Of a stretch of DNA of 64,000 nt, positions 1,590 to 56,847 are shown one piece after another. The notes under the pieces were generated by a model, which was not told the DNA's origin, searched no databases, and was given only the letters and a program-made list of their open reading frames with translations. The position numbers and the translations under genes are program-made. Within the stretch, counting starts at the first letter, position 1, and every line of letters starts with the position of its first letter. The stretch comes from a virus, in the IMG/VR virus record IMGVR_UViG_3300038406_000196, positions 1-64,000 of that record. The stretch is one strand, 5' to 3'.

Positions 1590-1991
1590 ATGGCAACCGT
1601 GCAAGAGGTGGTCTACACCGACGACCTCACCGGCAAGCAGCTCAACGCTGGCGCATTCTGGACCATCCGGCTGGTAATCGACGATGTGGCCTACGAGCTG
1701 CACCTGTCCGGGAAGTCCAAGACTGCGTGGGAGAAGGCGCTGCAGCCGTTCATCGAGAACACGGTCGGCGAGAAGGTGAAGCTGCCAGCGCACGGCAGCC
1801 GGATCAGCCTGTTCAGCCAGCGGCGGCCGGCGACGGTGGACCGGGAACAGAACCGGGCGATCCGAAACTGGCTGGCCGACAACTGGCAGAACGCCGGGCT
1901 CGACCCGCCCTCATGGAAGGGGCGTATCCCGGTTGCGGCAGTGGAGGCGTTCCAGCGGTACGGCGGGAAGAAGGTTCCGCCGGCTGCGTAG
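1590..1991 (+). CDS. lsr2: Lsr2 family nucleoid-associated protein
   Basis: N-terminal MATVQEVVYTDDLTG..YELHLS dimerisation motif; C-terminal AIRNW...KGRIP AT-hook-like motif; RBS AAGGAGG. Confidence 0.85.
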   Translation: MATVQEVVYTDDLTGKQLNAGAFWTIRLVIDDVAYELHLSGKSKTAWEKALQPFIENTVGEKVKLPAHGSRISLFSQRRPATVDREQNRAIRNWLADNWQNAGLDPPSWKGRIPVAAVEAFQRYGGKKVPPAA

Positions 1992-2018
1992 CGGCGACCA
2001 GATTTCAGCTGTCTACGG

Positions 2019-2546
2019 TCAGGCTGGCTCGTAGCGCGCCCAAGTCACGCGGCCGTCCATGAAGATGAGGCGCAGCCCCGATCCGGCCATGACCTGTTCC
2101 TTCACATCGTCGCTGATCGCCGGATCGGCGAGGTGGACGGTGTAGAACTTGCCGAAGTGCTGGGGCCGGGTGCCGAACCGGACCGCGTGGCCGGGCTCGA
2201 TCGACCAGCGCTCGCGTTCGCAGATGGACCGCTGCTCGTCGGTCAGCTCACCCACCGGCACATAGCCGCGTGGCCGGTCCACTGCCTCATCGAACCGGCT
2301 TCTGCCCGACACAACGCACAGGCGATCCGGGTCGCGGTTCGGGATGTGGATGTAGAACTTGTGGGGGAAGCCGTACTTCATGTCCGCCCACTCGGGCGCC
2401 CACAACGGTTCGGCCACTAGGTCGTCGGGGTGAATGCTGCCGCAGAAGGAGCAGCGGCGAAAGTGCTCGCCGCCGCGGGGTTCGGACCACGACCAGCCGC
2501 CGTACTGCTCGGCCTCCCAGCCATGCACAGGCTCACGGTCGGGCAC
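2019..2546 (-). CDS. hypothetical phage protein (CSFCGSIHP motif)
   Basis: 175-aa ORF with GGAGG RBS, last gene of leftward operon. Confidence 0.65.
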   Translation of the reverse strand: MPDREPVHGWEAEQYGGWSWSEPRGGEHFRRCSFCGSIHPDDLVAEPLWAPEWADMKYGFPHKFYIHIPNRDPDRLCVVSGRSRFDEAVDRPRGYVPVGELTDEQRSICERERWSIEPGHAVRFGTRPQHFGKFYTVHLADPAISDDVKEQVMAGSGLRLIFMDGRVTWARYEPA

Positions 2547-2790
2547 GGCTCACCTCCCCGCCTTTGCAAGGTTGGTGGCGCCCCTCGGCGGCCGGGGGCT
2601 GGTTGGTCGCGGGGCCGCCGGACTGCGGGGGGCGGGAATGGAGGAAGCCCCGCCGTTCGCTTCTGGTGGCGATCAGGCGGGGCTTCCCAGACTTCGACTG
2701 CGACTTGGACTCGCTGGGCCAGCGTAGCAGAGCAACGCCCGGTGCTCGCCGGGCGGTGGACACACTGGTATCCGGTCGGAAGCGTATCTG

Positions 2791-3162: not shown

Positions 3163-3983
3163 GCCGCGCCCTGCCAGACGAGCAGCCGCATCATCCTTTC
3201 GTACTCGTCGTACGGTCGCCACGCTCCGCAGTCGTGACACCACACGGGCGGGTCGTCCTTGAACTGGCGGGGGTGGCGTTGGCGGAGGTCTTCACCGTCG
3301 CATTCGTGGCAGGTGCCCGGCAGCCTCCGGACCCGTTCCGTCAGGCCGGTCATCGCGTTGGCCAACGAGTGGAGCCGGGTGAGGTGGAGGATGCCGTCGG
3401 CGCCGGTGGGGGCGGTGTGGTCGATGGCATGGTGGCGTTGGGCGGCCGTCTGCTGGTCGGGGTGTTGCCGGTCCGGCCCCCACACCACCGCCGACTCCAT
3501 CGAGTCGTCCAGGGCTGGATAGTCGGCCATGTCGCACGGGCCGAGCCGGGCGAGCCGGTCCAGCCGGGGGGCGATCACGTCAACCGCCCGTCGGACCGCC
3601 CAACCTTCCCGCACCCCGATGCGGACCTCGGCCGACAGCCGGTCCATGTCCCGCACCACCGGCTCCCACGAGGTGGCCACCCACCAGATGTGCCGCTGCA
3701 GGACGAGGACGTACTCGCGCAGGGGGAGGGGTAGTTCACCGCGGCCCCGTTTCGGCTGCCCGTCGGACCACTCACCGAGGCTCGGGGGGATCAGCTGCTC
3801 CAGGGCCACGTAGTCGGCTGGCAGGTTCCGCACGTCCCGTTCAGCCACTCGGAGGCAGTCGGGGCACAGCGGCGGCGAGTTGAGATCGAGCAGCGCGGCG
3901 CGTTTCCGGGGGTGGTCGAAGTTGCGGCACCGTACGCCGGCCTGGCAGAGCCGTTCGGCTGAAACGCTGGTGGCAGGTGTCAT
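3159..3983 (-). CDS. hypothetical phage protein with Cys pairs
   Basis: 274 aa, several CxxC pairs, RBS GAGGAG. Confidence 0.7.
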   Translation of the reverse strand: MTPATSVSAERLCQAGVRCRNFDHPRKRAALLDLNSPPLCPDCLRVAERDVRNLPADYVALEQLIPPSLGEWSDGQPKRGRGELPLPLREYVLVLQRHIWWVATSWEPVVRDMDRLSAEVRIGVREGWAVRRAVDVIAPRLDRLARLGPCDMADYPALDDSMESAVVWGPDRQHPDQQTAAQRHHAIDHTAPTGADGILHLTRLHSLANAMTGLTERVRRLPGTCHECDGEDLRQRHPRQFKDDPPVWCHDCGAWRPYDEYERMMRLLVWQGAA

Positions 3984-43734: not shown

Positions 43735-45414
43735 TCAGGCACGGGCCACCTCCTCTCCAGTGATTGCCTCGACCACCGCGGCGATCAGGTCCCGGGCGGC
43801 CGGCGGCGTGACGGCGTTGCCGAGCTGCCTCACCCGCTCGCGCTTGTTGCCGAGCACCACGTACGCCGGCTGAAACGCCATGGCGGCCTGGATCTCGTGA
43901 GGCTCCAGCATCCGGAAGGTGCAGTCGTCCACCCTCACCTCCGGGCCGACCAGCGCCTGCCGGTCGACGGTGGTCACCGTCCCGACCGGCTCATCCACGC
44001 GCCGCGCGGTGCTGGTGCCGTAGTAGGGCACCAGTAGGTTGTCCCAGCGGATCAGCGACTGCACCTGCTGGGCCAGGATCGTCCGCAGTGGCTCGGTGAC
44101 CGGGGTGGACATCTGGCCCTGGTCGCCGCGGGCGGTCATGTTGCGCATCACGAGCGCGTGGTGGTTGCCGGCTGCCGCTACGGTCGGAGCTGGCGCCTCC
44201 TCGGCCAGCCGAGCTACGCCGTTGTTGCGCAGGGGCACCACGAGCGCATCCTGTAGCCGGGCGGTCTGGGTACGGGCCGGCTCGGCGGCCGGGCGAGCAG
44301 CGATGCCCTCGCGGCCCTCCACCGGCACAACGAGGGCGTCAGTGTCGCGGGTGAGCCTGGCCGTCATAGGCTCGCTGACCAGCCGGGCGGACGCCTCGTG
44401 GTTGGGCCCGCCGACGGCGAGCATCATCGGCGGGCAGGCGACCGCCTTGCTCGGGGTGGTGTGCAGCGTCTTGAACGGCTGTTCGTCCGCCGGCCACGCC
44501 CGCACGTAGTCCGATCCGGGACGCTCGTACGTGTTGCCGGCGGCCTCCAGGTGGATCGGCCGGGCGTACCGCTTCAGCCCGGCTTCGATCCGGGCGACGG
44601 TCTTCGGCGCCAACGGCCTCGGGCGGTCACCGATCCGCTCGCCCGGCAGGTCCCAGTCGATCGCCACCGCGGCCGGTAGGACGCCGGGGAACACCTCGAC
44701 GTGCTGGCAAGCCTGGTTCGGGCACCGGTAGAGGTATTGCTGCCGGTAGCGGCCCCGTGGCCGGTCGGGACGCTTCCACGCCTGCACCGCCCGCACCTGC
44801 TCGTCGCACTCCGGGCACCATGCCGCTGGCCGGGTCCACCGGTCCAGGTCCGGCCGACGACCGCCCCGGCGCCACGCCACGACGTACAGCCGGTCACGGG
44901 ACTGCGGTGCGGGTGCGCCGACCTGCTGCGCGAACATGCTGTTCAGGTACACCACCGCGTGGTCGTAGCCGAGGTTGTCGAGCCCCATCACCCACGCCGG
45001 CCACAGCACCCAGTCCCGCACGTCGACCACGTTCTCGACGACGACCGCCCGGTACCGGTGCACCTCGGCGAACCGGAGGACATCGAACATGGTCGCCCGG
45101 GACCGCTCCGCAGCCTCGTCGGGCAGGGTCTCGCCGAACAGGTCGGGCTGGGCGCCCTCCTTGCGTCGGCCACGGGCCTGGCTGTGGTTTGTGCACTCCG
45201 GGCTGGCCCAGAGGATGTCGGTGCGCGGGTACCGCCGGGGGTCGACCTGGGAAATGTCGGCCGTGTCGTGGTCGGCGTGCGGGAGGTTCCGGTTGTGGGT
45301 CTCGACCGCCAGCTTCCAGTGGTTCGCGGCCATCCGAATGCGCACCCCGGGCACAAGCTCGGCACCCGAGCTCGAACCCCCGGCCCCACAAAACAGGTCA
45401 GTTACCGTCAGCAT
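43735..45414 (-). CDS. DNA (cytosine-5) methyltransferase
   Basis: DLFCGAGG, SPECTNHS, VENV, QSRDRLY, RQLGNAV. Confidence 0.95.
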   Translation of the reverse strand: MLTVTDLFCGAGGSSSGAELVPGVRIRMAANHWKLAVETHNRNLPHADHDTADISQVDPRRYPRTDILWASPECTNHSQARGRRKEGAQPDLFGETLPDEAAERSRATMFDVLRFAEVHRYRAVVVENVVDVRDWVLWPAWVMGLDNLGYDHAVVYLNSMFAQQVGAPAPQSRDRLYVVAWRRGGRRPDLDRWTRPAAWCPECDEQVRAVQAWKRPDRPRGRYRQQYLYRCPNQACQHVEVFPGVLPAAVAIDWDLPGERIGDRPRPLAPKTVARIEAGLKRYARPIHLEAAGNTYERPGSDYVRAWPADEQPFKTLHTTPSKAVACPPMMLAVGGPNHEASARLVSEPMTARLTRDTDALVVPVEGREGIAARPAAEPARTQTARLQDALVVPLRNNGVARLAEEAPAPTVAAAGNHHALVMRNMTARGDQGQMSTPVTEPLRTILAQQVQSLIRWDNLLVPYYGTSTARRVDEPVGTVTTVDRQALVGPEVRVDDCTFRMLEPHEIQAAMAFQPAYVVLGNKRERVRQLGNAVTPPAARDLIAAVVEAITGEEVARA

Positions 45415-45687
45415 TGGAGCCGCCCTCCAGCGCCCGCAGGGCACGCTCGTTTGCGACCGCCGGCAGCAGTGTCAGGTCGGCGAGGATTGCCCGTACCGCG
45501 TCCAGCCGGGCGTCGGCGGTGGCGTGTGCAGCCGTAGCCTTCAACGCGGCGCCCCGGGCCTTGCGTAGCTCCCGCTCCAGCCGTTCGATCTCGGCGGTGA
45601 GTCCGCCGCCGCGCTCAGCGGCGGCGTCCAAGTCGGCGCGCAGGTGCAACACCACCGCCTCATGGCCGCAGGGCTGCCACGGCCACC

Positions 45688-46941: not shown

Positions 46942-47388
46942 TCAGGCGGTGAAGCTGATGTGCCGCAGCCGACGTCGCTGCGAGCCGAACCACGCCAGCA
47001 GCCCACCGGCCGCCATCAGCCCCACCGCGGCGGCGGCGATCAGCAGCGGATTCGTGCCGGTGACCGGCAGGCTGGCGTCGTCGTCTTCGCGGTTGCCGCC
47101 GGTGTCGGTCGGGTCGGTGGTCGGCTCGGCGGTCGGGGTCGGGTCCGCCGTGGGTTCGACCGTGGGGGTCGGCGTCGGCTCGGCGCTGGGTGTCGGCGTG
47201 GGTTCCGGCGTGGGCTCAACTGTCGGGGTCGGGGTCGGCTCGATTGTCGGGGTCGGGGCGGCGCAGCCGTAGCCGTAGCCCGGCTTACACGGCAGCTCGG
47301 CTGCTGCCGGGGACCCGAACGCGAGCACCGGGCCGATGCTCAGGGCCAGCACGCCGAACGCGCCGGCCAGTCTACTGTAGATAGTCAT
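46942..47388 (-). CDS. sortase-anchored (LPVTG) surface protein with PT repeats
   Basis: signal peptide, (P/E)PT repeats, LPVTG, TM helix, RRRLR tail. Confidence 0.85.
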   Translation of the reverse strand: MTIYSRLAGAFGVLALSIGPVLAFGSPAAAELPCKPGYGYGCAAPTPTIEPTPTPTVEPTPEPTPTPSAEPTPTPTVEPTADPTPTAEPTTDPTDTGGNREDDDASLPVTGTNPLLIAAAAVGLMAAGGLLAWFGSQRRRLRHISFTA

Positions 47389-47621
47389 ACCTCTATCCCT
47401 TCACCGGCCGGGACCGGCCGGAGTCTCAGTTGGTGGCTGTGCGCCGAGCGCCTGCATCAGCACAGCGAGCAGGTCCCACGCATCCACGGCGGTGCAGGTG
47501 ATGTGCTCCTCGCCGACCGCCACCTGGACCTCGGCGAACGGGTGGCCGGGTACGTACGACGCCGCGGCTTCGCCCGAGGCGCGGAAGATCGGAAGCGGAC
47601 CGGTGGGCATCGGCAGCGGGT

Positions 47622-49745
47622 TCACTGGGTCATCTCCAGCGGCAGGACGCCCTGGATTGGCTTGGACAGCCGGGCTCGGATCAGGGGGAGGTAGTCGGAC
47701 TCCCGCTCGATCGCAACGCACCGGAACCCCTCGGCGAGACACGCCTCGGCGGTAGTGCCGGATCCGGCGAATGGGTCCAGCACCAGGCCGCCCGCTGGCG
47801 TGACCAGCCGCACGAGCCAGCGCATCAGCGCCAACGGTTTGACCGTCGGGTGGGCCTTCCCGTTGACGCGTGGGCGCTCACTGGCGTCAGCCTTGGCCTC
47901 GTAGCGGAAGGCTGGGAAGAACCGGGATGCACCGCCAGCGTCGGCGTACTCGGTGCCGGTCGCAGTCATACGCCAGCCGTTGCCGCTGCCAGCTCCGCGT
48001 GGTTTCCCGGCGCGGGAGACCGTTGCCCCGCTCTGCTCATCTAGTTCGGCAACCGGGCAGCCGGGCACACACCCGTCGGCACAGGCGTCGCCCACCGGCC
48101 GGCCTGCCTCGTCAAGCAGCGGCGGGTGGGACAGCACCATATTGGTCGGCCACCGGCCGGCGTCGCTGCCGCTGGTCCAGGGATCCGGCGCGTACTGCTG
48201 GCCATTGGCGTAGCCGTCGCCAGTGAAGCGCGGGGCGGTGTTGTGTCGACGGGTGCTCTCGCTCGTCGCTACGCGGCAGCCGTCGATGTTCAGCGCCCCG
48301 GTGCCGTGCGCGAGCACATTGCCGGCGACTGTGCCGGCTAGGGGCTTACGCGCCACGACGATCGGCTCCCAGCCCGGTTTCAGCGCCGTACCCCAGCCCT
48401 GCCAGCGGTGGGCGTCGTCGGTGGCGGGGGCGGTGACGGTGGGCACGAACTCGCGGCCGTTGTCTTTGATCCACGAGCCGGTGCGGTTCTGGTCGGCGCC
48501 GGGGATCATCCGCTTCGCCGCCGGGCCTTCGGCGAGCACCTGCCGCTGCGCGCCGGCGGCCTTGTCGATCGCCTTGGACACGTTCAGCGACTTGGGGAAC
48601 CCGCTGCTGTACAGCCAACTGATCGTGTCGCGGATCTCGAACCCGGCGTCCTCGATCGCGCACACCAGCCGGTGCCAGGTGCGGGTACCACCGAAGGCGA
48701 CCAGATGCCCGCCTGGCTTCAACACCCGCAGACACTCCGCCGCCCAGGCGCCGCACCATCGCTGGAACGACGCAGGAGACTCCCAGCCGTCCCACGTCTT
48801 ACCCATGAACCCCCGAGAGCGTTTAGTACAATTGATCGTGTGCCAAGGAAGGTGGAGCGAGAGTGTCCCGCGTGTGGGCTGATCTATCACGCGGACGAGA
48901 CCCGGCTCCGAAACGGTCGCCAGACCACCTGCTCCCGCCGCTGTTCCTATCGGCTTAGGGGCGAGAACCAACAGCGGCGGGTTCGTATCCGGTGTGCCAC
49001 CTGCGGCGTAGAGATCACCCGTTCGCCGCGCCAGGTCAAGGCGAAGCATGGCGCCTCGTACTGCTCCCGGCGGTGCCACTACACCGGCCGCACCCTCGGC
49101 CTGACCGGGCGCGTCGTCACCAACCCGTACGTCCGCGTCGCCCCGCTGAATCCCGAGGCTCACGCCCGGACCGTCGCCACCCGCAAGGCTCGGGACAACT
49201 ACCGGCACAGCGATGACACCCGGCTCCGGCTCCGTGAAGCAACTGCACGTGCCATCGCAGAAGGTCGGGTCGCCAGTGTCAGCCGGTGCGAGGACGTAGT
49301 CGCCGAAGTGCTGGACCGCCTTGGCGTCGGCTACCGTCGCCAGGTGGCTATCCGGGGTGAGCGCGGACGCTACGTGGCCGCTGTCGACTTCCTGCTCGGC
49401 GACGGCCGAGCCGTCGAGGTGAACGGCACGTTCTGGCACGCCGACCCGCGCGTCTACCCGAACGGACCAGCCTTCCCCGCCCAGCGGCGGACGGCCGCAT
49501 GCTGGGACCGCAAGGTGAACGCTCTCGCTACGCTCGGGATCCCCGTCGTGATCATCTGGGAGATCGACCTCGCGGAGGATCCGACGCAAGCAGTCAGCGT
49601 CGCGCTTGCCGCTGTCTGACAGGTTGTACGGCGGGTCGGTCACTACCGCGTCGACGCTGCCCGCTCCAAGCTGGGGGAGCACCTGCAATGCGTCACCGTG
49701 GTGGAGGTCGACCTGGTCGTCTTGGTAGTACGGCTGGAGGCTCAC
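47622..49745 (-). CDS. DNA amino-methyltransferase (N6A/N4C, beta class) with 269-codon in-frame insertion
   Basis: TDPPY, GFMGKTWD, RVLKPGG, HPTVKP, LDPFAGSGTT; insertion 48813..49619. Confidence 0.9.
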   Translation of the reverse strand: MSLQPYYQDDQVDLHHGDALQVLPQLGAGSVDAVVTDPPYNLSDSGKRDADCLRRILREVDLPDDHDGDPERSESVHLAVPACGRPPLGGEGWSVRVDARVGVPERAVHLDGSAVAEQEVDSGHVASALTPDSHLATVADAKAVQHFGDYVLAPADTGDPTFCDGTCSCFTEPEPGVIAVPVVVPSLAGGDGPGVSLGIQRGDADVRVGDDAPGQAEGAAGVVAPPGAVRGAMLRLDLARRTGDLYAAGGTPDTNPPLLVLAPKPIGTAAGAGGLATVSEPGLVRVIDQPTRGTLSLHLPWHTINCTKRSRGFMGKTWDGWESPASFQRWCGAWAAECLRVLKPGGHLVAFGGTRTWHRLVCAIEDAGFEIRDTISWLYSSGFPKSLNVSKAIDKAAGAQRQVLAEGPAAKRMIPGADQNRTGSWIKDNGREFVPTVTAPATDDAHRWQGWGTALKPGWEPIVVARKPLAGTVAGNVLAHGTGALNIDGCRVATSESTRRHNTAPRFTGDGYANGQQYAPDPWTSGSDAGRWPTNMVLSHPPLLDEAGRPVGDACADGCVPGCPVAELDEQSGATVSRAGKPRGAGSGNGWRMTATGTEYADAGGASRFFPAFRYEAKADASERPRVNGKAHPTVKPLALMRWLVRLVTPAGGLVLDPFAGSGTTAEACLAEGFRCVAIERESDYLPLIRARLSKPIQGVLPLEMTQ
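48813..49619 (+). mobile_element. 807-bp insertion element in the methyltransferase
   Basis: removal restores DPPYNL-GFMGKTWD; carries a promoter and an endonuclease ORF on the opposite strand. Confidence 0.8.
48840..49619 (+). CDS. homing-endonuclease-like protein (Cys zinc fingers, NUMOD3-like, Vsr/DUF559-like nuclease)
   Basis: CPAC..CSRRC, CATC..CSRRC, HSDDTRLRL, VDFLL..AVEVNGTFWH..DRKV..VIIWE; TACAAT 7 nt before the GTG. Confidence 0.85.
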   Translation: MPRKVERECPACGLIYHADETRLRNGRQTTCSRRCSYRLRGENQQRRVRIRCATCGVEITRSPRQVKAKHGASYCSRRCHYTGRTLGLTGRVVTNPYVRVAPLNPEAHARTVATRKARDNYRHSDDTRLRLREATARAIAEGRVASVSRCEDVVAEVLDRLGVGYRRQVAIRGERGRYVAAVDFLLGDGRAVEVNGTFWHADPRVYPNGPAFPAQRRTAACWDRKVNALATLGIPVVIIWEIDLAEDPTQAVSVALAAV

Positions 49746-49930
49746 CGCGTCCGCCCTCCCCTCGGCGCAGCCAACGCCGCCCGACGGGCAGCCGACGATG
49801 CGGCCAGGGCACGCCCACGCCACCGACGGCGAGCGTGGGCCATCTCGCACGCGGCCACGGCAGCGTCGTGGCGCATCAGCCGCACGGTCGGGGACAGGTC
49901 ACGGGCGGTCATGCCGGCCACCGCCCGGAC

Positions 49931-49976
49931 TTGACGGGTGTAATTACACCCGCTACTGTTGAGGTGTAACTACACC
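49931..49976 (+). promoter_or_regulatory. promoter with palindromic operators
   Basis: TTGACG-17-TACTGT; perfect 18-bp palindrome CGGGTGTAATTACACCCG (49935-49952) and GGTGTAACTACACC (49963-49976). Confidence 0.8.
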
Positions 49977-49989
49977 CCCGGAGGACACG

Positions 49990-50217
49990 ATGTACTACCG
50001 CAAGCTCATCGCCGGCCAGATCGGCACCAGCGACACCGCCACTGTCGGCCTCGTCGAAGAACTGATGCGCGCCGAACACGGCACCCTCGACCACCTCACC
50101 CCCGCCGAGTTCACCGACGCCATCACCGCCGCGCTCGTCGAAGCCCGCGACCTTGCAGCCACAGGCCAGCTGGGCGCCTGGTGCACTGCACTCGACATCC
50201 CGGTACCGGTCCGCTGA
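49990..50217 (+). CDS. small hypothetical protein
   Basis: GGAGG RBS downstream of the promoter. Confidence 0.7.
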   Translation: MYYRKLIAGQIGTSDTATVGLVEELMRAEHGTLDHLTPAEFTDAITAALVEARDLAATGQLGAWCTALDIPVPVR

Positions 50218-50218
50218 C

Positions 50219-50407
50219 ATGCCCGGCCAACGCGCCGCAGGCATCCGGCTCCGGGGAATCCCGATCGACGGCTCGCTGTGGAAGGCAGCCCAGGCCGCCG
50301 CTGCCATCCGCGGCGAGAGCGTGTCCGAGGTGATCCGGCGGGGGCTGCGGCAGTACGTGGACGAGGTCATGCCTGGCAGCTCGCCGAAGGAGCGCCAGAG
50401 CGCGTGA
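50219..50407 (+). CDS. ribbon-helix-helix (CopG-like) protein
   Basis: RGIPIDGSLWKAAQAAAAIRGESVSEVIRRGLRQYV. Confidence 0.75.
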   Translation: MPGQRAAGIRLRGIPIDGSLWKAAQAAAAIRGESVSEVIRRGLRQYVDEVMPGSSPKERQSA

Positions 50408-50761
50408 GCGTCGACCTGCCACCGCGGCCGGGCAATCACCGGAACCGCCTCGGCCCCATCGCAGCCGACCCGACCGCGAAATCGTGCTCGCACCGTTCCG
50501 AGCGACCGCCCACCACGCACCCGCACGGGCGGACGTACACCTGCCGTCCCAGCGTCTCCGGGGTGCAGCACTCCGGGCTACCAGCGGCGGCCATGCACCG
50601 GGGGCAGGCCGGCCGGCGGCACGGCCCGCAGGTGGCGCTGTAGGTGTACTCGCCGCACTTGCACACCCGCAGCTGCCGGGGCTGGTGCTCGCAGGCGTGG
50701 GGCCGGGAGGCGACCTCCCCGCACCGACACAGGCCGGGCAGGGTCGCAAGGTTCACGGCGC

Positions 50762-55401: not shown

Positions 55402-56847
55402 TTACCGCCCGCGCCACTCGATGGCGATCCGGTTGTCCACGGTGCCGTCGTAGGGTGGCTTGGCCCGGTGGACCACCACCTGCTTGACGAACATCCCCAC
55501 GAACTCCCGCCGCTCGCCGAGGTCCATCGCCGAGACCACCCGCGCGTCTGTGAGCACAGCCGGGTCGACATCCCCGACCGGCTGCGGTACCTCCGCCAGC
55601 TCACCCCGGAGCCGGGCGTCGTCGGCGGCCAGGCTGTCGCGGGCGGTACGCCACTCGTCGTCGGTCAGGTCCCGGCGCCCCCACGCACCGGCCAGGGCTG
55701 TCCGGCGCCGCTCGATCTCCGCCAGGTCGACGTTGATCTGGTCGCGCTGCTCCGCGTGGTCGTCGGAGGTGAACTGGGCCAGGAACTGCGGGTTCGCCAG
55801 CGCGGCCATCAGCACGGCGAGGACGTGCCGTTCCGCCGGGCCGGCCATGATGCCGACGCAGCCGCGACCGCCGTACTTCACCCCGCAGACGTAGTACGGC
55901 ACCTTCGACCCGTCGCGGGCGGTCGGCCGCAGCGTGCCGACCATCCGGGCGCCACACACCCCGCATACCGAGAGCCCGCCGGTGAGGAGGTGCCGGCGGG
56001 CACTGCGCCGGCCGGGCGCCGGCACCGGGTAGGCGCCGGCGAGACCGTTGACCACCCGGGCAGCGCCGAGCTTGGCGCAGACCGCCTTCCACGTCGCCTC
56101 GTCCAAGATCCCGGACCAGTTGCCGGCTCCGACCACTGCGCCCTGATGCAGCCGCAGCCCGGCCACCGCCGGAGTGGTGACCATGTCCTTGATCGAGGTG
56201 CTGGTGAGTGCGCCGCCCCGGCTGCCGGTGACGCCGCGGCGGGCCAGGTCCCGCGCAACGTTGGTCAGCGACCAGCCGGCGAGCACGCGGTCGGCGACCT
56301 CGCAGACCACGGCGGCCTGCTCAGGGTCGTGCGCGTAGGTCTTGACGCCGTCGACCACCACTCGGCGGAACCCGTACGGGCAGGTGGGCGGCGGGATGCC
56401 GGCGGCGGCGTTGCCGTCGAGCTTGTCGTGGACGCGCCTTTTCAGCTTCCGCACCTCCGCGGCCGCGATCACGGCCTTGATTCCGGCTACCTCGTCGACG
56501 ACCCGCACGATCCCGTCACGGTTGGTGTGGACCTCCTCGATGCCAGCGGCGTCCAGCTCGGCGGCGAGCGCGAACCAGCCGACCTCGGTACGCTCCAAGC
56601 GGGTCTGCTCAACGGTCCACAGCTGGGCGACGTGGCCGGCCCGGATCTGCTCGCGCAGCGCGTCGAACTGCGGCCGGGGTCCTCCGTTGGCGGCGGACAG
56701 TCCGGGGTCGGCGAACACGCGCACGGGCAGCCCTGGCCACCTGGCGGCGGCGTACTCGCGCCCCCATCGCTGCTGGCTGTCGACGCCCTCGTAGTTGCCG
56801 TCGGGCCGTGGGGACAGCCGGCAGTAGAGTGCTACGCACCTGGTCAT
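55402..56847 (-). CDS. large serine recombinase (integrase)
   Basis: YCRLS catalytic Ser, DPGLSA..RPQF, TRLER, PYGF, CGVCG..YYVC zinc ribbon, coiled coil. Confidence 0.95.
   Translation of the reverse strand: MTRCVALYCRLSPRPDGNYEGVDSQQRWGREYAAARWPGLPVRVFADPGLSAANGGPRPQFDALREQIRAGHVAQLWTVEQTRLERTEVGWFALAAELDAAGIEEVHTNRDGIVRVVDEVAGIKAVIAAAEVRKLKRRVHDKLDGNAAAGIPPPTCPYGFRRVVVDGVKTYAHDPEQAAVVCEVADRVLAGWSLTNVARDLARRGVTGSRGGALTSTSIKDMVTTPAVAGLRLHQGAVVGAGNWSGILDEATWKAVCAKLGAARVVNGLAGAYPVPAPGRRSARRHLLTGGLSVCGVCGARMVGTLRPTARDGSKVPYYVCGVKYGGRGCVGIMAGPAERHVLAVLMAALANPQFLAQFTSDDHAEQRDQINVDLAEIERRRTALAGAWGRRDLTDDEWRTARDSLAADDARLRGELAEVPQPVGDVDPAVLTDARVVSAMDLGERREFVGMFVKQVVVHRAKPPYDGTVDNRIAIEWRGR

Follow-up and report, generated by a model that had tools for sequence, protein, structure and literature searches.

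A Vsr-like nuclease gene nested antisense and in codon register within a phage DNA methyltransferase gene: a candidate non-splicing homing cassette

The stretch of viral DNA analysed here (the window; 64,000 nucleotides (nt), positions 1 to 64,000 of IMG/VR record IMGVR_UViG_3300038406_000196, a virus record of 119,206 bp rated complete) carries on its minus strand a gene predicted to encode a beta-class N6-adenine/N4-cytosine DNA methyltransferase (methylase). An insert separates the catalytic motif of this gene from the remainder of the enzyme, and the opposite strand of the insert holds an open reading frame (ORF) for a homing-endonuclease-like protein. We refer to the insert as the cassette and to the methylase parts on either side of it as exteins. 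The locus comprises the following features.

47622..49745, minus strand: beta-class N6/N4 DNA methyltransferase ORF (predicted), continuous across the insert, 707 codons plus stop
49620..49745, minus strand: N-terminal extein of 42 codons, with catalytic motif IV, DPPYNL, at its end
49620-49637, minus strand: DPPYNL, motif IV
49617..49619: shared codon, TGA stop of the nuclease on the plus strand and TCA (Ser), first inserted methylase residue, on the minus strand
48813..49619: inserted cassette (candidate promoter, nuclease ORF and its stop, nothing more), 807 nt or 269 methylase-frame codons
48840..49619, plus strand: homing-endonuclease-like gene, 259 codons, GTG start, TGA stop, antisense to, and in codon register with, the methylase
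48827..48832, plus strand: TACAAT -10 box, 7 nt before the nuclease GTG, candidate leaderless promoter
48864..49076, plus strand: two zinc-ribbon-like modules (C9, C12, C31, C35; C52, C55, C75, C79)
49275..49616, plus strand: Vsr-like (EDxHD-like) nuclease domain, residues 146-259
47622..48812, minus strand: C-terminal extein, GFMGKTWD to the stop
48789-48812, minus strand: GFMGKTWD
47751-47777, minus strand: S-adenosylmethionine-binding motif I, DPFAGSGTT

The methylase matches Pfam family PF01555 (N6_N4_Mtase; E = 2.8e-33, in two stretches) and PHROG family phrog_67 (E = 2.7e-80), and a Foldseek search with its exteins retrieved CcrM (6pbd, 6.9e-8) together with M.RsrI, M.MboIIA and M.PvuII. 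Its motif order, with motif IV (DPPY) N-terminal and motif I C-terminal, and its Rossmann-like fold are those of the beta class. The start was placed at a GTG that agrees with the N-termini of homologues; an alternative upstream GTG at 49850 would give 742 codons. The C-terminal extein is 62–65% identical to uninterrupted methylases, and the gene matches 459 phage records, mostly mycobacteriophage methylases, at 70–78% DNA identity. AlphaFold2 models of the methylase reached a predicted local distance difference test score (pLDDT) of 78–94 at residues 1–40 and up to 74–96 in the exteins.

All 269 inserted codons are in frame with the methylase and stop-free, and 260 of them make up the nuclease ORF, leaving 27 nt of the insert outside it. 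Insertion took place two residues past the catalytic DPPY; at this point an alignment of uninterrupted relatives reads DPPY-x-L-x-FMG. An initial annotation, made from the letters alone, had described an insert of 807 bp (269 codons) that parts DPPYNL from GFMGKTWD while the frame stays open, and an antisense nuclease whose TGA is the first inserted methylase codon, TCA; its coordinates were all verified, the shared codon included, and the alignment it had proposed to uninterrupted methylases gave the junction just stated. Read in the methylase frame, the insert encodes a peptide that includes SDSGKRDADCLRR, has no Pfam match and is modelled by AlphaFold2 with pLDDT mostly below 50.

The plus-strand ORF is predicted, from homology and a structural model, to be a genuine nuclease gene with a Vsr-like fold. 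It has 124 homologues of ∼260 amino acids (aa) at 38–71% identity, with whose N-termini its GTG start agrees (MPRKVERECP), and a search of 1.84 billion cluster representatives returned 44 at E ≤ 1e-30 and 205 at E ≤ 1e-10. The AlphaFold2 model of the nuclease has a pLDDT of 88.5. In its N-terminal half, which has weak zinc-finger-type Pfam and PHROG matches, the cysteines of the two zinc-ribbon-like modules form CxxC...CxxxC pairs and are invariant or nearly so in 41 aligned sequences; these modules are presumed to be the DNA-binding part. They occupy the place where NUMOD or helix-turn-helix (HTH) modules were looked for in this half and not recognised.

Pfam, run on the nuclease alone, returned Vsr below threshold (E = 0.066), and the fold was therefore established through a profile-against-PDB search and through structure. 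The family profile matched Escherichia coli Vsr (1cw0, E = 3.6e-5) and, marginally, I-Bth0305I (3r3p, E = 0.098), and Foldseek with the nuclease model gave 1cw0 (7e-4), 1vsr (4.5e-3) and I-Bth0305I (3r3p, 5.4e-3; TMt, the target template-modelling score, 0.65). Conserved in the alignment of the C-terminal domain are D183, E193, N195, H200, D202, K225 and E241. D183, E193, N195 and H200 are the positional equivalents of Vsr D51, F62, H64 and H69, and D183, E193 and H200 are invariant or nearly so; Glu at the F62 position and Asn at the H64 position are also what is published for Vsr-like homing endonucleases, in the sections of PMC2677866 and PMC3239194 that describe them. Vsr D97 has no aligned Asp in the nuclease, in which D202 and K225 are conserved instead, as judged from the sequence alignment only. 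Of the description 'zinc-finger plus Vsr/DUF559-like' in the initial annotation, the zinc ribbons and the Vsr-like fold thus stand, while a Pfam search of the nuclease gave no match to DUF559.

In the methylase frame, three nuclease codons (TTA, CTA and TCA) would read as stops. In the window alone 1.4 of them are expected and the probability of finding none is 0.23–0.26, so that its open frame is non-significant; for this reason homologous nucleases and their DNA were retrieved (20 viral loci, 14 genome loci and the best 80 of 322 metagenome loci). Clustering of 98 full-length nucleases at 90% identity yielded 73 clusters. Among the 101 loci where the nuclease match was long, a set that includes the window, 64 show an antisense cassette flanked by DPPYxL and (G)FMG; in 6 others one flank is visible, and 31 have another layout. 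At all 64 loci with both flanks visible, the flanks are in the codon register of the nuclease and the methylase frame is stop-free. This nested layout occurs in 47 of the 73 clusters, at loci whose GC content spans 37–72% (below 50% in 13 of the 47).

Expected counts of TTA, CTA and TCA were computed from the extein codon usage of each host. The 47 nested nuclease genes together contain none of the three codons, against 275.7 expected, with a single-locus probability of zero as low as 2e-12; loci down to 37% GC should by chance have 5–18 stops each. Where the two remaining antisense frames were checked (13 loci), they hold 3–36 stops, and members of the family that are not nested carry up to 22 TTA, CTA or TCA codons. 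Relatedness among the 47 loci means that their joint probability should not be taken at face value, but no plausible correction for it rescues chance as the explanation. In codon register, every stop in the host frame corresponds to one nuclease codon that has synonyms, which, as a consequence of the genetic code, is true of this antisense phase only and explains why this register is the one found. Across the family, selection thus preserves a methylase frame free of stops through the cassette. Two points of the initial annotation bear on this result: its caveat that antisense frames are often open in high-GC DNA applies to the window taken alone (P = 0.23) and fails for the family (0 versus 275.7), and the frequent stops or frameshifts in homologous inserts that it had named as a sign of simple gene disruption did not appear, all 64 inserts being in frame and stop-free, with a decayed methylase in one further cluster (L044/L056).

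Substitution patterns differ between the two strands, which the initial annotation had suggested comparing. Among 31 pairs of nested cassettes, the ratio of nonsynonymous to synonymous substitution rates (dN/dS) is 0.14–0.42 in the nuclease frame, indicating purifying selection, versus 0.49–1.64, or around 1, in the methylase frame, and changes are concentrated at the third position of nuclease codons. GC at third codon positions in the window amounts to 0.81 for the nuclease frame of the insert and 0.70 for its methylase frame, the exteins having 0.86. The methylase-frame dN/dS near 1, together with the missing Pfam match and low pLDDT, suggests that the sequence of the inserted peptide is free and that only the absence of stops is constrained. 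In nested hosts the exteins are still under purifying selection (dN/dS 0.15–0.43; 8 of 12 pairs computable, with dS saturated throughout), and DPPY is unaltered in 43 of the 47 nested hosts.

The ends of the cassette follow a few recurrent patterns. A nuclease stop of TAA or TAG is the complement of the host Leu codon in DPPYxL in 29 of the 47 nested clusters, and in 12, the window among them, a nuclease TGA adds Ser directly after that Leu. At the other end, a TANNNT motif ends 7 nt before the nuclease start in all seven high-GC loci (the window, L005, L006, L039, L041, L042 and L043), a layout typical of leaderless actinobacterial genes; in the window this is the TACAAT box at 48827–48832, which the initial annotation had proposed as a leaderless promoter inside the insert. 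In other clades an extended -10 element lies at the FMG junction and is followed by a 25–35 nt leader with a GGAG-like motif, and the exact octamer GGTATAAT is found in 10 of the 47 nested clusters. A generic sigma-70 promoter and terminator scan of 47400–50100 found nothing; because it needs two hexamers, it is blind to a leaderless promoter that consists of a -10 box only. These candidate promoter signals travel with the cassette.

We also looked for signals by which the insert could be removed. Rfam searches of 47000–50500 on both strands at E ≤ 1 gave no match; Hint splicing blocks were not found, and Pfam returned no match on the methylase-frame peptide. The C-terminal junction (...KRSR/GFMG) is without Cys, Ser or Thr at +1. 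The 27 nt outside the ORF could accommodate neither a ribozyme nor splicing (Hint) domains, and the earlier statement that intron and intein signatures are missing is borne out by these searches. A group I or group II intron was rejected on the Rfam result and the 27 spare nt, and an intein on the missing Hint blocks, the missing +1 nucleophile and the methylase-frame dN/dS near 1. Ribosomal bypass of 807 nt was rejected because a stop-free insert divisible by three would then be needless and is nonetheless maintained, an argument that speaks equally against RNA splicing. A search for sequencing runs that contain the stretch listed no RNA run. Contigs of three DNA runs yielded just the probable source contig and short fragments, without any joint skipping the 807 nt; the joints seen had sides of 21–37 nt and were taken as spurious.

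Tree and identity comparisons show the cassette to be patchily distributed and more conserved than the flanking host gene. On a methylase tree of 141 C-terminal parts (34 nested and 107 empty alleles, the latter sampled only among the 120 best matches to the window), nested and empty alleles interleave with 7 changes, and a 45-row IQ-TREE phylogeny likewise gave 7 changes, of which supported branches force at least 6. A single clade for the 7 nested alleles of the clade of the window, which was named only after the first tree had been seen, was rejected (log-likelihood lower by 137.8; approximately unbiased (AU) test p = 0.009). Identities of nuclease and host are nearly uncorrelated (Spearman 0.12, 496 pairs): loci L039 and L042 share 70% nuclease and 46% methylase identity, L010 and L018 37% and 64%. 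Between L018 and L109, DNA identity falls in blocks, from 76–96% in the cassette to ∼70% in the conserved flanks and 45–60% beyond them. In a Planctomycetota metagenome-assembled genome (L028:3010-3727), a truncated nuclease of 215 codons, matched over residues 4–196, sits in frame and stop-free in the methylase, which fits a decaying cassette late in a homing cycle. At L044:2860-3880, and likewise in L056, an intact cassette lies in a methylase whose N-terminal extein is interrupted by a stop codon and whose frame is shifted beyond FMG. No other nested cluster has a decayed host gene, and the state of this one also fits the later part of such a cycle.

Taken together, these data make it probable that the insert is a homing cassette that does without splicing and is translated in reverse to yield a floppy loop. 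No nuclease codons other than TTA, CTA and TCA can stop the host in this register; each of the three has synonyms, and they are removed by selection. We propose that, with these codons removed, the methylase mRNA is translated straight through the cassette. The product would be a 707-aa enzyme with a disordered loop of ∼269 residues, and neither intron, intein nor bypass would be needed. The nuclease would be transcribed from its own promoter, against the methylase, and would cut cassette-free DPPYxLxFMG-coding alleles in co-resident phages or prophages, after which recombinational repair would copy the cassette into the cut allele. A non-splicing homing element carried as a translated antisense loop was one of the readings offered in the initial annotation, and it is the one favoured by the codon avoidance, the lack of spare nucleotides, the patchy distribution and the conserved promoter.

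The nuclease lineage also occurs in other layouts. Sixteen clusters have the cassette in antisense orientation just before the start codon of the methylase, and 8 of these also lack TTA, CTA and TCA, so that their antisense frame is stop-free. In 8 of 17 upstream-type loci examined, the in-register antisense frame terminates in an ATGA-type overlap with the start codon of the methylase, which suggests translational coupling; L077 is a possible ninth if its true start is an ATG four codons downstream of the TTG picked by our script. In 16 of the 17, a methylase stop codon follows directly after DPPY-G/D, in a mini-insert of 7–20 nt before LxFMG, often between matched Gly codons (GGA TAA ... GGA). 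The loci concerned are as follows.

ATGA-type overlaps: L054:1330-1333, L072:2983-2986, L074:400-403, L085:1271-1274
ATGA-type overlaps: L100:2983-2986, L061:1402-1405, L066:2983-2986, L084:2781-2784
Mini-insert loci: L054, L061, L064, L066, L070, L072, L074, L077
Mini-insert loci: L079, L081, L084, L085, L094, L100, L112, L020 (example, L072:2800-2900)

Several mini-inserts share TACCA, the complement of the TGGTA promoter end of the cassette. A mini-insert could be a footprint of the cassette, an immunisation of the site, a case of ribosomal bypass or a split gene, and its association with an upstream cassette supports the DPPY-FMG junction as the target site of the nuclease. The upstream-type cassette of L077 is bordered by a 54-nt direct repeat (2943-2996 and 3878-3931, 98% identical) that includes the ribosome-binding site and start of the methylase; since L077 alone among 8 loci examined showed flanking direct repeats, target duplication is not general.

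Other arrangements were seen in passing. In Mycobacterium phage Willsammy (L003:1790-2635) the methylase region contains an antisense nuclease, located between FRYEAKAPGAERP and VKPLALMRWLV. Its ORF (1838-2635, plus strand of the locus) encodes a zinc-ribbon/Vsr-like protein of 265 aa that is 30% identical to that of the window; the annotated gp53 'hypothetical protein' is the in-register antisense reading of the nuclease, and the methylase frames are broken there. Phages Fishburne, Donovan, Techage, Langerak, Kari, KilKor, Seagreen and juyeon have a similar arrangement. In protein P0096 (321 aa) a member of the nuclease family is joined in sense to the motif I segment of a methylase (...LDPFAGSGST...), which gives the family a second site and orientation of insertion. 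Four close methylase relatives (P0180, P0184, P0208 and P0213) contain other long in-frame inserts, rich in Ser, Thr and Ala, after GWGTALKPAFEP, with a further one in P0180 after GGASRFF; these resemble junk-frame readings of other hidden genes. LAGLIDADG domains (PF00961) are present in several methylase relatives. In phages StevieRay (L001:1475-3065) and Spoonbill the methylase is annotated as three pieces with a 29-aa ORF between them and the nuclease is absent; Spoonbill has a 'tmRNA' feature annotated in the gap between the pieces.

Elsewhere in the window, whose GC content is ∼70%, three further genes characterise the phage.

55402-56847, minus strand: integrase (phrog_95, E = 1.2e-65)
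50153-50407, plus strand: Arc-like repressor
43735-45444, minus strand: second DNA methyltransferase of the phage (phrog_116, E = 3.7e-70)

Integrase, Arc-like repressor and second methylase together indicate a temperate phage with two methylases, and its host is probably a high-GC (actinobacterial) organism.

Several points weigh against the reading as a translated homing cassette. Read-through, retained methylase activity, the cleavage site and homing are all steps that we infer. The insertion of 269 residues at a distance of two residues from DPPY may well hamper catalysis, and the AlphaFold2 model of the insert is too poor to judge such an effect; motif IV is non-canonical in 4 of the 47 nested hosts (DSPY, DPSY, DPPA and DPPF). 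The non-significant open frame of the window by itself, the relatedness of the 47 loci, the decayed host gene of L044/L056, the narrow sampling of empty alleles and the choice of the AU-tested clade after the fact count on the same side. So does the stop-free frame in half of the upstream-type clusters, from which it follows that codon avoidance is not tied solely to in-frame fusion; keeping the antisense frame open may benefit the passage of ribosomes in addition to a fusion protein.

On an explanation built on ribosome movement alone, the frame would be kept open to avoid termination, polarity or mRNA decay, or to deliver ribosomes to a downstream start, and the 707-aa methylase might be crippled or inactive. 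The stop-free upstream-type clusters and their ATGA-type overlaps agree with it, as do the position of the insert against the catalytic motif and the variant DPPY motifs, but coupling would not require both exteins to share a frame, as they do at 64 of 64 nested loci, and the conservation of the exteins and of DPPY in 43 of 47 hosts speaks against it too; we regard this explanation as unlikely. Nuclease and methylase could instead be partners, in a restriction-modification-like or addiction module or through regulation of the nuclease by antisense methylase transcription. The nuclease family occurs almost only with this methylase family (nested, upstream or, in P0096, fused in sense), Vsr/PD-(D/E)XK-type folds are also employed by restriction enzymes, and convergent transcription would couple the expression of the two genes. 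Yet the exact position of the insertion, in the best conserved motif of the coding sequence, is what homing sites typically show, the cassette is absent from most close methylase relatives (107 of 141 rows), the histories of cassette and host are uncoupled, the methylase-frame peptide is neutral, and the in-frame truncated remnant at L028 is what a cycle of homing and decay leaves behind, all of which makes a partnership improbable.

Removal of the insert by an unrecognised process, whether an intron with an antisense nuclease gene, a non-canonical intein or ribosomal bypass, has precedents: group I introns carrying antisense nuclease genes reportedly exist in protist ribosomal DNA. Actinophage inteins with an antisense Vsr-like or LAGLIDADG nuclease are described in the part of bioRxiv 10.1101/2025.01.02.630785 considered here. 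The stop-containing short inserts with matched Gly codons at the same site in related methylases also hint at bypass. Against removal stand the empty Rfam and Pfam searches, the missing Hint blocks, the 27 nt outside the ORF, the junction without a +1 Cys, Ser or Thr and the dN/dS near 1, and a stop-free insert divisible by three, needless under RNA splicing or bypass, is maintained by selection; removal is accordingly very unlikely. Simple gene disruption, in which a free-standing nuclease gene landed in the methylase and killed it and the open frame is a by-product of high GC, would suit the probability of 0.23–0.26 for the window alone, the second methylase of the phage and the decayed relative L044/L056. 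It is scarcely credible in view of the same in-frame, stop-free layout at 47 non-redundant loci down to 37% GC, of exteins under purifying selection, and of relatives that are not near-copies of one ancestor (nuclease identity down to 38%).

Free-standing nuclease genes that enter a conserved gene without an intron or intein and leave it in pieces have a precedent in mobE, within nrdA of phage Aeh1, where host function is retained and two polypeptides reassemble; the host gene of the window differs in that it stays one open reading frame. A closer parallel is found in the ShiLan domain and other 'hidden HNH' inserts of actinobacteriophage methylases. ShiLan is an in-frame methylase insert of 202 aa in which the third frame of the host strand conceals an HNH nuclease (Arsenault, Gosselin and Gogarten 2025, PMC11855218); it shows no sign of an intron or intein, and the proposal is that the enzyme tolerates it as a loop (PMC11855218; Gosselin et al. 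2023, PMC9957025). The initial annotation had taken ShiLan for an antisense HNH; in this it was wrong, and the sections of PMC11855218 and PMC9957025 considered here make no mention of an antisense arrangement, but it was right that the nuclease fold of the window differs from HNH, being Vsr-like by profile and Foldseek. As those sections describe it, ShiLan is hosted by the same actinobacteriophage methylase family (the one studied by the Gogarten group) and likewise has a conserved site, an open host frame, no intron or intein signature, a disjunct distribution, a proposed loop and a GTG or leaderless start invoked for the nuclease. The cassette of the window differs from that description in its Vsr-like nuclease, its opposite strand, its exact codon register and its different site, after DPPYxL; its antisense register explains stop avoidance by synonymous choice alone, quantified here as 0 observed versus ∼276 expected.

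A second parallel is formed by the actinophage inteins with an antisense LAGLIDADG or VSR-like nuclease, whose hosts, in the part of bioRxiv 10.1101/2025.01.02.630785 (a 2025 preprint of the Gogarten group as well) that treats them, are DNA polymerase, minor capsid, terminase and thymidylate synthase genes. They share with the window a Vsr-like homing nuclease antisense in a translated in-frame insert of a phage gene, and the VSR-like domain spans residues 144–267 in the nuclease described there versus 146–259 here. Unlike those inteins as described, the cassette is the whole insert, with no flanking splicing domains to excise the junk peptide and no C-extein nucleophile, and its host is a methylase. 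A tblastn search of 50,697 phage records with the window nuclease found no intein-borne relative.

The nuclease itself resembles the EDxHD/Vsr-like homing endonucleases, namely I-Bth0305I (Taylor et al. 2011, PMC3239194) and those of 'fractured genes' (Dassa et al. 2009, PMC2677866). According to the parts of these papers that deal with them, the similarities extend to a C-terminal Vsr-like domain, a separate N-terminal DNA-binding part, residence in phage DNA-metabolism genes and the four residues Asp (Vsr D51), Glu at F62, Asn at H64 and His (Vsr H69). The known members there carry NUMOD or HTH modules, unlike the two zinc ribbons here, and are found on the strand of the host, either in group I introns or between the halves of split inteins; that host is spliced or split and not read through. 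Stand-alone inserts without an intron or intein, such as an SbcD-like case, are also known from these sources (PMC2677866/PMC3239194). Our literature search, which left aside the supplementary tables of bioRxiv 10.1101/2025.01.02.630785, where related cases might be listed, found no description of an antisense, intein-less nuclease cassette in a methylase. An antisense Vsr-like nuclease, without a surrounding intein, in a methylase is thus a new combination of known pieces.

On the usual view, a homing endonuclease gene can persist in a conserved gene only inside a self-splicing intron or an intein, or by splitting that gene. Antisense codon-registered cassettes may, with about even chances, be a third general way, beside introns and inteins, for such a gene to occupy an essential motif without killing its host, being translatable backwards, never using TTA, CTA or TCA and carrying their own promoter. 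The same proposal includes a second lifestyle upstream of the methylase start, often with an ATGA overlap, in which a 7–20 nt mini-insert between matched Gly codons would immunise the target and might itself need bypass or split-gene expression. The cassette family would thereby show a cheaper route to survival with a measurable signature, the complete avoidance of three codons in phages of 37–72% GC. From that signature follows a simple rule by which further elements of this kind can be found and annotations corrected; published mycobacteriophage records label the junk strand 'hypothetical protein'. If read-through is true, these methylases would be natural examples of long disordered loops tolerated beside an active site, and the zinc-ribbon/Vsr-like nuclease family has a directly testable target in the DPPY-FMG coding sequence.

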